A DNA stretch of 64,000 nt, from assembly GCF_050320075.1 (NCBI RefSeq), contig NZ_CP190018.1; one strand, written 5' to 3'. The DNA comes from Escherichia coli (lineage in GTDB: Bacteria > Pseudomonadota > Gammaproteobacteria > Enterobacterales > Enterobacteriaceae). Made by a program: the position numbers and the translations under genes. Below the pieces are notes generated by a model. The model saw nothing but the letters and a program-made list of their open reading frames with translations. It ran no database searches and had not been told where the DNA came from. How positions within the stretch are numbered: the stretch's first letter is position 1; every line of letters begins with the position of its first letter. Below, piece by piece: positions 2,793-9,260 of this stretch.

Positions 2793-5700
2793 TTAACTCG
2801 CCTGAGAAGGCGCTTCGTCACTTCCTGGAAGCGTTTCAGGGAGTTGCGGCGCAAAGCCACGCAGGCCGACGACGTGAACGTGTTCGGTATTCTGGAAGAC
2901 TTTACGCACCAGTTTATAGGTGGTGCCTTTCTCCGGGCTGATATTTTCCGGCGCTGCGATGATGAGCTGCATTTGCAAACGTTCACACAATTCAAACAGC
3001 GTGGCGATAGAACGAGCATCCAGTCGCGCTGCTTCATCGAGGAACAGCAGGCGGCAAGGAGAGATATCTTTACCGCGCAGGCGGCGAGATTCATCTTCCC
3101 AGCTTTGTACCACCATCACCAGAATCGACATACCGGTACCAATCGCCTCACCGGTCGACAATGCACCAGACTCTGCGCGCAACCAGCCATCAGAACCACG
3201 GTTAACCTCAACTTCCATTTCCAGATAGTTGCGGTAATCCAGCAGTTCTTCGCCAATGGTCTGCGGCGTGCGCTGCCCCATATCAATCTGCGGATTAAGA
3301 CGCTGATACAATTTCGCCAGCGCTTCCGAGAAGGTCAGACGGTTGCTGTTAAACAGATCCTGATGCTGCTCATGCTGTTCAGAGAGCACATCCAGCAGCA
3401 TGGCGTGCGTTTCACGCACGTTCACGTTGAGGCGCACGCTGTTCACCTGACCAAACGATACGTTCTGCAACCCCTGGTTGAGCATACGGATACGGTTCTG
3501 CTCGCGCTGAATGGTTTTTCGAATAATGTTCGCCACGCTGCGGGAACTGATCGCCAGTTTCTGTTCACGGGAGGTTAACTCTTCGGTCAGACGGCTAAGT
3601 TCGATCTCCATCTGTTCGATAGCTTCCACCGGATCATCGGTACGAATAATATCCTGACGAATACGTTCACGCAGATGCTGATAAACCGCCACGAAGAACT
3701 GAATTTTACGTTCCGGACGTTTTGGATCTTCCGACATGCGCAGCACATCGCGCAGATGTTCGTTATCTGCCACTGCCAGACGCAGCGCACCTAACGCCTT
3801 ATCCGACATGGAACGCAAATCATCAGCGGAGAGATAAGCCAGCTCACGACGGTGTAAGCGGCGCTCAACGCCGTTATCTTTCACCATGCGCATGACTGCA
3901 CACCAGCCCGCTTTCGCGGTCACTACCTGCTCGCGCATCTCAAAGTAATCCCGCTCCAGCTTGCGCAGTTTGCGGGTCAGGTTGTCCATCTCTGCTTCGC
4001 AGAAGGTAAGCGCTTTTTCCAGTTGATTGCGGCGTGAACGGTTATTGCTCAGTTGCGCGTGCAACTCGTCACGGCGAATACGCGCCCGCTCTTCTGCCCC
4101 GCTATCAGCTCGCACGCCGATATCCTGCAATTCACGTTGCAGATCATTGAGTAGCTCTTTTTTGGTGTCGTAAGAACTTTTCAGCGAAGCCAGCACCTGG
4201 TTGTACTGACTCAACTGCGCTGCGTGTCCGCGCAACGCTTCACGCGCGCGGGTACGCTCCGCTTCCGCCTGTTCCAGACGTTCACGCAGTTTTTCGTTGA
4301 GATCGCTGTTACCGCTAAGCATTTCTGCCGAGTCAGAGTAGCTAAAGTGCGCACGACGCTGCACCACTTCCGTCAGGGCAAACGCCTGCTGACGGGCATC
4401 GCGCTGCATCTGCTGAGAGTACGCGTAATCTTCTTTTAACTGTTCGAACTGTTCCGGGTCACTCTGCAATACCGAAACGATCGGTTCCAGTTTCGCCAGT
4501 TGATTACCGAACTGCTGAACAAAACGCGCGGCTTCCTGGGCTTCATCCAGACGTTCGCGGATTTCATCGACGCGATCCGCCAGGCTGTCATCAGCCAACA
4601 AGTTGAGACGCGGCAGAATGCGGTTCAGCGCCGTAACACCCTCTTTCGCCTGCTCAAACTGAATACGCTGCTGCTGGTTATCATTTTCATGATTACTCAA
4701 CGCCCGCTCCAGTTCGACGCGACGGCTGTTCAGTTGACGGATTTCTGCTTCCGGGTCAGACTCAAACGCCACCGCCAGATGACTACCTATAAAGCGGCTG
4801 AATGCCTGATGCAGACGCTGGGTTTTCTGTACATCAAAGGAGAGCGTGGCGAAGCGTTCGGAAAGCACTTCACGCTCGGCATGGAGGCTTTCAATACGGC
4901 TTTCACGCGCAGCACGACCAAACAGCGGCACTTCCGGGAAACGTGAATAACGCCACTGACGATCGGCGATTTTCACCACTACAGCTTTTTCCAGCTCATC
5001 AACGCTGAACACGCTGTCATCGAATGACTGCGGATCCCCTTCGATCAGATAGAGATCTTCCGGGCAATCGGTCAAGCCTTCCAGGTGCTCGGTTACCTGT
5101 GACAGATCTGGCACCACGATGGCGTGGCGTGACGGGCCATACAGCGCTGAGAAGTACGGCGCATCTTCCAGGCTAACGTCATCATAAATTTCTGACAGCA
5201 GCACACCACCAAAACGCTCCGCCAGCGCGTTCAGACGCTGATCTTCAGAGCCGCCTGGCTGGCTTAAACGTTCGATCTCTTCATCGACGGCGTTTTTGCG
5301 TGCGCCAACTTCGTCACGTTCAACAATCGCTTCGCGCTCACGCTCAAGCAACTGTTGCAGATATTCGGTGACGTCCTGGCTGGAGGTGAACTCTTCGCCG
5401 CACTGTTCGCTCAACTGGTTGAGACTGTTTTGCGCTGCCAGCCAAACCGGCGCACGCTGCATCAAACTCTGAATGCGAGACTGCAGCTGTTCCTGTTCCT
5501 GGCGCAGTGCCATGCGCTCTTCGCGGGCGTTAGACACGCTATCGGAAAGAGAGGCAATGCGTGCTTCCAGCTCCTGATGCAGAGCTTCCAGTTCATCAAT
5601 ATCAAAATTCTTGCCCTGACGTTTGCAGAAATCTGCCAGCAGGCGTTCGGCTTCTTGCTGCTCGCGCAGACGCTGTTCCAGTTCGCTTAAGCGCATCCGC

Positions 5701-7253
5701 AACGGTTGAACCTGCTCTGCCAGGTGACGCTGATCGACCCCTTCGCGCAATAGTTCGCGAGCGACATCCCACGCCTCGTTACGCGCCAGCGGGCCATTAA
5801 TTGCCACCACCAGCTGATAAGCCTGCTCAAACTGGCTGTGCGCGGTTTGCGCCATGCTCATTTTCTGCTCAAGAGAGAGCATTTTTTCAGTCGCTTCCAG
5901 CTCTTTCGCCTGGAAGGTTTCCAGCCATTCGGCGGCGCTGTCGGCGGTTAAGTCCGGCAGATGGCACAGTTCTTTGGCACGATTAAGCGCAGCAATCGCC
6001 TGGTTATACTGGATCGCGCGCGTTTGCTGGACGTCCAGCGCCTGCTGATAGTCAGCAAGCTGGCTTTTCAGCTCGTCCACTTCCAGTTCGGCAGCTTCCG
6101 CACGAGCCTCGTTCTCTTCCTGGCGTTCGATGGCTTCTGCCACCACTTCGTTTTGCTCTTCCAGACGGATCTGCAGCTCATCGAGATCCGCTTCGTAACG
6201 TTCGATCTTCTCCTGCTGACGCAGTGCGGTTTGCACCAGGTTCAGGTGATCGCTGGCCGCCTGATAATCCGCTTCCAGATCGCCTTCGGCACCGTTGTGC
6301 TCTGCCAGCTCACGCGCCATATCGACGTGTTTGTACTGCTCAGCCGCCAATTGCTGACGCGAAGTATGTAGCTCGCGACGAAATTCCAGGGCTTTGTCGA
6401 GATGGACACGGCGCTCGTTGGCGTGACGCATGTAGTCCGCCGCCACGTAGTTGGTGGCTTCGCTGATCAGATGCTTAAACAGGTCACGGTCCGACTGGGT
6501 GACACGAATCGCTTCCAGCGTCATGCGATTTTCACGCAGTGCCGCTTCCATGTCCTGGAACGCTTTACGCACCCCGCTGTTTTCCGGCAACAGGTAGTCG
6601 CGCAGAGAACGAGTAATGGCGCTGGAGATCCCGCCATACAGCGAGGCTTCGATCAGACGATAGAATTTGCTACGGTCAGATGCGGAGCGCAGACGACGCG
6701 CGATGATGCCCAGATCGAACATCAGCGAGTGGTAATCGGTAATGGAGTTGAACTGTTTAAACTGCACGCCTTCCATCGCCTCGAGCTTGTCTTTCAGCTC
6801 GTTAAGCGGCAGCACGCGCGCCTGGCGTTCGTTCAGGGTTTCGGTCACCAACTGCGTCGGCAGCACCGACATCGGCAGGCCCTGAATGGCAAATGGTTTG
6901 ATATCCACTTTACGATCGCGTCCGGCAACCTGTTGCAGACGCACACCGACCACCACGCGCTGGTGGCGCGAGTTAATGGTGTCGAGCATCGAATAACAGA
7001 CACCCGCTTTCAGCTTACCGTGCAGACCTTTATCACGCGAACCGCTGGTGGCCCCGGCTTCCGTAGTGTTACGGAAATGCAGCAGGGTCAGGTCGGGGAT
7101 CAGCGCCGTAACGAACGCCGCCATGGTGGTGGATTTACCCGCCCCGTTACCGCCAGAAAGCGTCGTGACCAGCTCGTCAAGGTCAAAAGTTCGGGCAAAA
7201 AAGCCGTTCCAGTTAATCAGCGTCAGTGAGCGAAATTTACCGCGTTCAATCAT
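2793..7253 (-). CDS. mukB: Chromosome partition protein MukB (SMC-like condensin)
   Basis: 1486-aa ORF; N-terminal Walker [10 protein letters not shown], long coiled coils, C-terminal head; length matches MukB. Confidence 0.97.
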
Positions 7254-7957
7254 TATTCTTCCTCTCCGCTATCTGGCTGACTCTCTTCGGTTTCATCGTT
7301 GAGTTGCAGATGATTTTCAATCGGCATTGCTTCGCCATCACGAATCAGGCGACGCTGTGCTTCACGGGGATCGTCGCCAGCACGCACATCGGCTCCGAAG
7401 CGGAACACCGATTCGGTAATGCGGAACTTGCTGCTGTCGTGGCCCATAAACCACACCATGCCCAAACGACGCAGACGGTTGAGCGAAGAACGTACTTTCT
7501 CCTGCAACTTCTGCCGGTCAACGTCTGAACCGGTTGAACGGTTGTTCACCAGTTTCAGCAGTTTCGCTTCATCGGCCAGGGTGAGCAGTTCGTCGTACAG
7601 TTCCTGTTGAGTAAAAATCCCCTCATTCGCCAGCCGTTCCGGGCTGAGATAGAGATAACAGAGGATTTTCCCGACCATCATATCCAGTTCCGACAAGACG
7701 GAACGAGGGATCAGCGTGGTGGAACGTGGGCGTAAATAGAAGAACCCTTCCGGTGCACGAATAAGCTCAACGTTATAACGCGCGTAAAACTCTTCCAGAT
7801 ATTCCTGAAAATCCATCAGGAATGCATGATTATCCAGTTCGTCGAGGCCAATATGGCGGCCTGAACGTAAGGCGCTATCCAGCGCCGGAAATAACGGATT
7901 CGCCAGCGCCTGCGCCAGCTTAACCGGCATCACTTGTTCAATATTTGTCGATGACAT
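7253..7957 (-). CDS. mukE: Chromosome partition protein MukE
   Basis: Track ORF 7253-7984; conserved MukE N-terminus MSSTNIEQ starts at ATG 7955-7957; stop TAA shares one base with the mukB ATG. Confidence 0.9.
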
Positions 7958-9260
7958 GCGCCTGTACCTTGGCTCCGTAATCATTAATCGGCTGCCATTT
8001 CGCTGGCAGTCCGGTGAAATCTGCTTGCGCTACGCCAAGACGTACCGCCTGATCAATAACAATGCGCGCAACGTCAAAGTGACGTGCACGCGGATACTGT
8101 GACAGATATTCGCGTACCACCAGACCAAGATCCAGCGGCACTTGTCTGGTTTTGTACACGGCGAGTTGTTCTTCGATGATCGCCGCCAGCTGTTCGCGGA
8201 TCTCGTTAAACTCTTCGTACTCCAGATCCTCAGGAAGTTCTCCTGTCACTTCTTCATCGCGCAGAGCCATCTCTTCGTCACGCATATCCAACAGACGATC
8301 GGCATTGGCATAAGTTAGCGCCCACGGCTCATCAAAATAGGTTTGTACCGACTGACGTAACCGCTGAGCAAAGACGCGGTTTTTATCCATATCGATTGCG
8401 GTACGGATAAATTTGTGTACGTGGCGGTCGTAGCCAATCCACAAGTCTATGGATTGCTGGCCCCAGCTGATAATACGGTCGAGTTTGCTCTGCAGATCGA
8501 ATACCAGACGATCGACAAAATGCAGATCGTCATGGGTCATCGTCGCATCCTGAATGCGCAACAGATTAGCCTGCAATTTGTCGCCTGCCGCTTCCAGCGT
8601 ATCCTGCAATTCACGCAGCGTTCCGGAAGTTTCCGAAAGCAACAATTCACAGCTGGAGATCGCCGCCCGCCAGTCTTTGTTCAGCAACTGGGCGATATCG
8701 TCCTTCACCTGCTGCTGCTGTTCGTCCATCAGACGTTGCGTCAGGTCGATACTGTCAAAAATTTCTGCTACCGAATATTTCAGCGGCGCATAGACATTAC
8801 GGTGCCAGTGAAATTCATCACCGCCCTCTTCGGCGGCATCTGCTGCGCGTTTGAGCTCACCCGCCACAATCGACAACTGCATAGAAAGGCGCAGCGTAGA
8901 AAACTCGCGCTGACGGATGTAATAGTCAGTAATGCCGATGCCGAGCGGCGTCAGACGGTAAATTGCGTTCCCTTCCGCCTGCTCGCTGGTAAAGCGGTTC
9001 AGCAGACGTTGACGCACCATGTCGTTGATCGCGTTGTTGGCGCGCACGCCGATGGTTTCGCTGGTTTGCTCAAACGCATCACTCACATGGCGGAATGCAT
9101 CCACCAGCTCGCCTTCACTCATCTCACCATCCAGACGCTCGCCGTTCAGCGTGGCAACCGCCAGCAGAAAAGAGAGTCGGTCTACCGGCAGCGAGATGGA
9201 GAAGTCATTTTTTCTGGCCCAGGCAACCAGTTCGGGGACTGTCTGGGAAAATTCACTCAT
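7938..9260 (-). CDS. mukF: Chromosome partition protein MukF (kleisin)
   Basis: 440-aa ORF recognised as MukF; overlaps the mukE start. Confidence 0.95.

Follow-up and report, generated by a model that had tools for sequence, protein, structure and literature searches.

The window, i.e., the whole stretch of 64,000 nucleotides of Escherichia coli DNA that was analysed (NCBI RefSeq assembly GCF_050320075.1, contig NZ_CP190018.1), carries on its minus strand the genes cmoM, mukF, mukE and mukB, in this order. The coding sequences, their junctions and the start codons that matter for mukE are the following (all positions are those of the window, together with the source of each assignment):

7938..9260, minus strand: mukF, coding sequence of 440 aa, the kleisin subunit of MukBEF (open reading frame list, Pfam and RefSeq annotation of the identical sequence)
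7253..7957, minus strand: mukE, 234 aa plus TAA, the coding sequence used in vivo (translation, match to PDB 3EUH, Pfam, Nakahigashi et al. 2016)
2793..7253, minus strand: mukB, coding sequence of 1486 aa (open reading frame list, RefSeq annotation)
9257..9260, minus strand: cmoM stop and mukF start, ATGA, overlap of 4 nt (open reading frame list, RefSeq, K-12)
7938..7957, minus strand: mukF/mukE overlap of 20 nt, i.e., mukE codons 1-6 and two bases of codon 7 (read from the sequence)
7251..7255, minus strand: mukE stop and mukB start, TAATG, overlap of 1 nt, with A7253 common to TAA 7255-7253 and ATG 7253-7251
7938..7940, minus strand: TGA stop codon of mukF, 17 nt past the first base of the mukE ATG
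7955..7957, minus strand: mukE initiation codon ATG (conservation, TetRP, N-terminal peptide)
7982..7984, minus strand: upstream in-frame ATG, start of a 243-aa open reading frame, non-functional; formed by MukF Asn426-Asp427 (AAT GAT)
7928..7930, minus strand: downstream in-frame ATG, Met10 (MPVKLAQ, 225 aa), the K-12 start before 2014; 7 nt after the mukF stop

Reading the minus strand together with its translation (the mukF 3' end runs ...GAC AAA TAT TGA) reproduced every coordinate that an earlier note on this DNA had given for a 20-bp mukF/mukE overlap and for the TAATG junction between mukE and mukB. On the mukF side, the overlapping 20 nt comprise codons 435-440 and the stop. The alternative mukE start that the same note had placed at 7984, nine codons upstream, is likewise present as an open reading frame: ATG 7984-7982 opens the longest one (7253..7984), and its overlap with mukF would be 47 nt. 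The genes at the mukFEB junctions are co-directional and overlap by 20, 1 and 4 nt, which is the spacing of coupled gene pairs, and we presume that they share a single transcript.

Pfam confirms the identities of MukF and MukE. Residues 3-440 of MukF are covered by the Pfam families KicB, MukF_M and MukF_C, and the mukE product matches PF04288 with 422 bits (cut-off 25; E=4.6e-127) and PF21980 with 173 bits (cut-off 27). It also matches the MukE chain of PDB 3EUH over its full length of 234 aa, with a single difference (Ser instead of Asn at position 225). In the window, in the RefSeq records and in 8 diverse loci, mukE lies between mukF (kleisin) and mukB (SMC). The 901 bases around the junction recur with 100% identity in many RefSeq E. 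coli chromosomes, and 5,425 of 5,426 complete E. coli genomes contain a match; of the 5,429 E. coli matches to window positions 7200-8100, four lie on plasmids and not on chromosomes. The closest known system is the K-12 operon cmoM(smtA)-mukF-mukE-mukB (mukE: b0923, NP_415443.2), which agrees with the locus in the window in gene order, in the 234-aa start and in the overlaps of 20, 1 and 4 nt. In K-12 MG1655, mukE is annotated at 975622..976326, mukF ends at 975641 and mukB starts at 976326. We found no difference of substance between the two loci; the one in the window is a strain-level allele of the same locus.

The earlier note had placed the mukE start at the ATG that opens MSSTNIEQ (7957-7955), while regarding it as ambiguous from sequence alone. 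That caution was fair for one sequence; comparison and published data settle the matter in favour of the placement. RefSeq/PGAP annotates the 234-aa MukE, with overlaps of 20 and 1 nt, both on the identical E. coli chromosome and in K-12 MG1655. The two kinds of experiment that the note had proposed as a check, N-terminal proteomics and ribosome profiling, have counterparts in published TetRP and COFRADIC data, so that both an initiation signal and a matching N-terminus are available for ATG 7957-7955. Specifically, Nakahigashi et al. 2016 (PMC4909307; Table S2, mukE in row 10) reported a TetRP signal of 20.1/14.1/10.6 at site -27, compared with 0/0/0 in the three samples at the 2006 start, i.e., at Met10, the later internal methionine that the note had allowed for; they shifted the mukE start 27 nt upstream of the 2006 annotation, which corresponds to the 225-aa form (PMC4909307). 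The same change had been made in the 2014 GenBank record (PMC4909307). A second start candidate for mukE is absent from Table S2, for which positions within +/-60 nt of the 2006 start, among them the 243-aa ATG, had been searched (PMC4909307). In addition, Table S4 of that study lists a COFRADIC-enriched N-terminal mukE peptide, SSTNIEQ..., which is the 234-aa protein minus its initiator Met (PMC4909307). Since this peptide is preceded by Met in the 243-aa form, trypsin could not have made it from that form. The mukE entry in this set of TetRP-confirmed re-annotations concerns the same locus as the one in the window (PMC4909307). MukE was not among the entries of the TRAINSPOTTER N-terminomics supplements. 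Among deposited structures, the 234-aa N-terminus is found in PDB 3EUH and 9GMB, with an equivalent N-terminus in the Photorhabdus structure 7NYW; the constructs of 3RPU and 7V8P begin with the 225-aa N-terminus. The Pfam model PF04288 also begins at residue 10 of the 234-aa protein (window 7256-7957), a legacy of the 225-aa start.

To compare the junction between species, we collected mukE loci from 80 genomes, all of them Enterobacteriaceae with MukE identities of 89-99%. After removal of extra E. coli copies and of one truncated locus, and with the window added, 78 ungapped junctions were compared; lineages more distant than Enterobacteriaceae were sampled singly, locus by locus. The mukF TGA lies at +17 of mukE, giving the 20-nt overlap, in 78/78 of the Enterobacteriaceae species. 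ATG 7957-7955 is kept in all 78 as well, and its T occupies the silent third position of the codon for MukF His435, which is always CAT and never CAC. The SD-like AAGG upstream of it is kept in 74/78, while the rival upstream ATG 7984-7982 is replaced by ACG in 19/78 through a silent AAT/AAC change at MukF Asn426. Among complete E. coli genomes, 5,397 of 5,425 share an identical 75-nt junction. The 20-nt overlap also occurs in Yersinia, Photorhabdus and Erwinia loci and in locus L086, whose MukE is 61% identical. Given its presence in all 78 species, in more distant loci and in nearly all E. coli genomes, the overlap is not a chance feature of one strain. In more distant lineages the distance between mukF and mukE varies, the genes overlapping by 8 or 32 nt or being separated by 34 or 85 nt, and the two gaps imply that the overlap is not essential to MukFEB systems. 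In the AT-rich locus L085, for example, the genes do not overlap and are separated by a 34-nt spacer with its own SD; MukE begins MNENLQDLISTKLAA there, and this N-terminus has about the length of the 234-aa form and no Met at the position of Met10.

Across the 78 species, the sequence around the mukE start stands out from the rest of mukF. Three features are relevant here:

7951..7982, minus strand: near-invariant block of 32 nt, -25 to +6 relative to the mukE ATG; 2/32 columns vary, in 4 and 6 of the 78 species
7967..7970, minus strand: SD-like AAGG, -13 to -10, separated from the mukE ATG by 9 nt; kept in most loci compared, including L086
7973..7976, minus strand: second SD-like motif GGAG, -19 to -16, with 15 nt between it and the ATG; forms the most stable anti-SD duplex (-5.8 kcal/mol)

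Silent sites that flank the 32-nt block vary freely. Within it, seven successive silent third positions (mukF codons 427-433) are invariant, and the next longest such run in mukF is two (codons 435-436). As a background, 5.4% of 424 degenerate mukF codons are invariant and the mean third-position entropy is 0.90 bits (74 species), from which the chance expectation for a frozen run of seven codons is about 6e-7 (0.054^7 x 424). Yersinia, Photorhabdus and Erwinia loci carry the block with one or two differences. In L086, silent mukF sites differ, while AAGGTACAGGC.CATGTCATCGA and the 20-nt overlap are retained. Invariance also extends to the silent positions of mukE codons 2-9, and normal variation returns from codon 11.

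A spacer of 9 nt, as found between AAGG and the mukE ATG, is favoured for UAAGG-type SD sequences. Four of the 78 species have G in place of the second A of AAGG, and the same CAAGG motif also precedes the mukF start. GGAG is invariant in the 78 species and reads GGGG in L086; it gives the strongest anti-SD match, and at 15 nt from the AUG it lies beyond the optimal distance. The predicted anti-SD duplex is -5.8 kcal/mol for ATG 7957-7955, -1.8 kcal/mol for the upstream ATG and -0.2 kcal/mol for the downstream ATG. From this pattern we infer that the 32-nt block is probably the mukE translation-initiation region embedded in mukF, and silent positions of mukF would be frozen across Enterobacterales because their bases serve two functions, i.e., mukF coding and mukE initiation.

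Taken together, it is very probable that mukE is translated from ATG 7957-7955 as a protein of 234 aa and that its ribosome-binding region lies wholly inside the end of mukF; mukF termination probably promotes mukE initiation. The mukF-mukE junction itself is an annotated and experimentally supported feature of E. coli that was already known. The frozen initiation region of 32 nt is what is expected of an embedded ribosome-binding site and adds a modest detail to this knowledge.

The length of the conserved stretch (core from -25 to +6, with freezing to +29) admits readings that go beyond a simple ribosome-binding site. One is that it is a dedicated element which sets a 2:1 ratio of MukE to MukF synthesis; we give this a low probability. 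Such an element could possibly act through back-scanning re-initiation combined with independent initiation, through a low level of Met10 use, or through binding of a trans-acting regulator. Another reading, which we likewise judge improbable, is that the invariant block mainly serves something other than ribosome binding, namely as a site for an sRNA or an autoregulatory protein, as a MazF site or as an internal promoter for mukE-mukB. It would account for a block longer than a minimal SD plus AUG and for the reduced variation to +29, and mukE is indeed among the MazF-processed transcripts, with cleavage at an ACA 7 nt from the start (PMC5001579), which fits the ACA at 7965-7963. This triplet (7963-7965, minus strand; 6-8 nt upstream of the ATG), however, is GCA in Yersinia, Photorhabdus and Erwinia, where the rest of the block is kept; no promoter-like site was found at the junctions and no Rfam family scored above chance. 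The block is moreover centred on the start codon that is used and spans approximately a 30S footprint, which makes a role in mukE initiation the simplest reading.

Initiation at Met10 (ATG 7930-7928) by termination-reinitiation, giving a 225-aa protein as the main product or as a minor isoform, is highly unlikely. This ATG is the one nearest to the mukF stop and is kept in 78/78 Enterobacteriaceae; the silent positions of mukE codons 7-9 are invariant, with variation returning directly after it; and the 225-aa protein folds and has been crystallised (3RPU, 7V8P). Against these points stand the empty TetRP samples at this codon and an N-terminal peptide that was recorded for the new annotation only (PMC4909307). 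The codon also has no SD, its residue is not Met in L085 or L086, and its conservation as an internal Met of the 234-aa protein requires no start function. As separate observations, the silent-site invariance that extends beyond the mukF stop into mukE codons 7-9 (7928-7939, minus strand) ends exactly at the Met10 ATG, and codons 8 and 9 tolerate amino-acid changes despite it.

A start at ATG 7984-7982, with the extension MITEPRYRR, has a probability close to nil and is effectively refuted: although it opens the longest open reading frame, has been used in one deposited Photorhabdus asymbiotica annotation (P0072, 249 aa) and would add a peptide, ITEPRYRR, that is identical in nearly all 78 species, its ATG is ACG in 19 of them (through position -26, just outside the frozen block), it has no SD (anti-SD duplex of just -1.8 kcal/mol), no second TetRP candidate is listed within the +/-60 nt range, the recorded N-terminal peptide starts with Ser2 of the 234-aa form (PMC4909307), and of the best 120 database homologues nearly all cover at most 96% of a 243-aa query. 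The conservation of the upstream nine codons, which the earlier note had suggested as a way of choosing between the starts, turned out to be misleading, as ITEPRYRR is near-invariant and yet the ATG that would open it is lost in 24% of species. The peptide is conserved because its nucleotides belong to the frozen mukE initiation region and not because it is translated; in L086, where silent mukF sites differ, the hypothetical extension becomes STIMGLRYRL. More generally, conservation of the peptide encoded by an upstream extension can be an artefact of nucleotide constraint in an overlapping gene.

With the start at ATG 7957-7955, a mechanism for the effect of mukF translation on mukE can be proposed. 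The mukE ribosome-binding region (AAGG, GGAG and the start codon) would lie entirely within the last ~14 codons of mukF, and the mukF stop, 17 nt past the mukE start, would fall inside one ribosome footprint, so that terminating ribosomes would be released on the mukE initiation region. These ribosomes probably aid mukE initiation, either by keeping a weak local hairpin open or by re-initiating after a short backward movement and capture by the SD and the AUG. Independent binding of 30S subunits to the SD probably adds further initiations. The MukBEF complex contains MukE4F2 (PMC8669397), and at this 2:1 ratio of MukE to MukF a strict 1:1 re-initiation would be insufficient, which suggests that independent, SD-driven initiation probably contributes. 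Overall, it is plausible that mukE translation depends on mukF translation. A full-text literature search found no experiments on mukF-mukE coupling, polarity or synthesis rates.

The two routes of coupling considered here, one through the opening of local structure and the other through short-range scanning followed by re-initiation, have been reviewed, and re-initiation at a start 17 nt before a stop is not as well documented as coupling across overlaps of 1 or 4 nt (PMC12548453). With the overlapping pairs known to be coupled (PMC12548453; Huber et al. 2019, PMC6728339), the mukF-mukE pair has in common that the genes are co-directional, encode subunits of one complex, have short or negative spacing and place the SD in the upstream coding sequence. 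The canonical motifs of such pairs, -1 and -4, are exactly those seen at the mukE/mukB and cmoM/mukF junctions, respectively. The 20-nt mukF/mukE overlap, whose start codon precedes the stop by 17 nt, is rarer than these motifs, and coupling across it is plausible. Should such coupling be real, mukF-mukE would offer a natural case of re-initiation at a start that precedes the stop, across an overlap of 20 nt.

The 130-nt junction fold has z = -0.55, and the hairpin that pairs the mukE AUG and holds the SD in its loop (41 nt) is weak and not significant (-8.3 kcal/mol, z = -1.0). RNAalifold on the junction returned one-sided changes only and no compensatory ones, the region being invariant. As the AUG hairpin is weak and compensatory changes are absent, coupling through RNA unfolding lacks specific support. 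An Rfam scan of the junction gave only chance-level matches, to eukaryotic and archaeal families, and with these z-scores, no compensatory changes and no Rfam match, a structured RNA element was set aside as a candidate. Antisense coding was rejected too, the plus strand holding just two mechanical open reading frames (33 and 48 aa) without support. We found no promoter-like or terminator-like sites at the junctions. A further hairpin, CTGCCA-GCGAAA-TGGCAG, is present at 7992-8009 (minus strand; mukF codons 418-423), 10 nt upstream of the invariant block. Across 68 sequences, 97% of its cells are paired, with wobble-type, one-sided changes only; Leu418 and Gln423 have frozen silent sites, and the pairing is lost in the Yersinia locus.

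The neighbouring junctions have recognisable initiation signals as well. The mukB start is preceded by the following feature:

7261..7267, minus strand: mukB SD GGAGAGG in the mukE 3' end, with a 7-nt spacer (anti-SD duplex -6.6 kcal/mol)

The mukE/mukB junction reads TAATG in most of the 78 species, ATGA (4 nt) in a few, and has an 8-nt overlap in four, and a GGAG/GAGG SD occurs shortly upstream of the mukB ATG in every one of these variants. In distant lineages the mukE/mukB overlap stays between 0 and 11 nt. Ahead of the mukF start, CAAGGA is conserved.

These results have two practical consequences. First, the 234-aa MukE is confirmed as the native protein, which is relevant given that 3RPU, 7V8P and the Pfam MukE model reflect the 225-aa start. 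Second, anyone recoding or tagging the mukF 3' end should consider that ~30 nt of it also serve as the mukE ribosome-binding region.

Several minor observations concern MukE itself. Among species, residue 3 (7949-7951, minus strand) is either Ser or Leu, as a by-product of silent ATC/ATT exchange in MukF Ile437, and this alternation suggests that the extreme N-terminus of MukE is unconstrained as protein. The cluster representative P0001 (236 aa, 668 members) begins MRMSLTNIEQ, i.e., its called start is two codons upstream of the conserved ATG. Finally, some distant MukE homologues, such as P0127 (501 aa), P0136 (574 aa) and other representatives of 380-570 aa, carry Asp/Glu-rich, low-complexity C-terminal tails of ~300 residues, and the acidic tail of E. 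coli MukE is far shorter than these.
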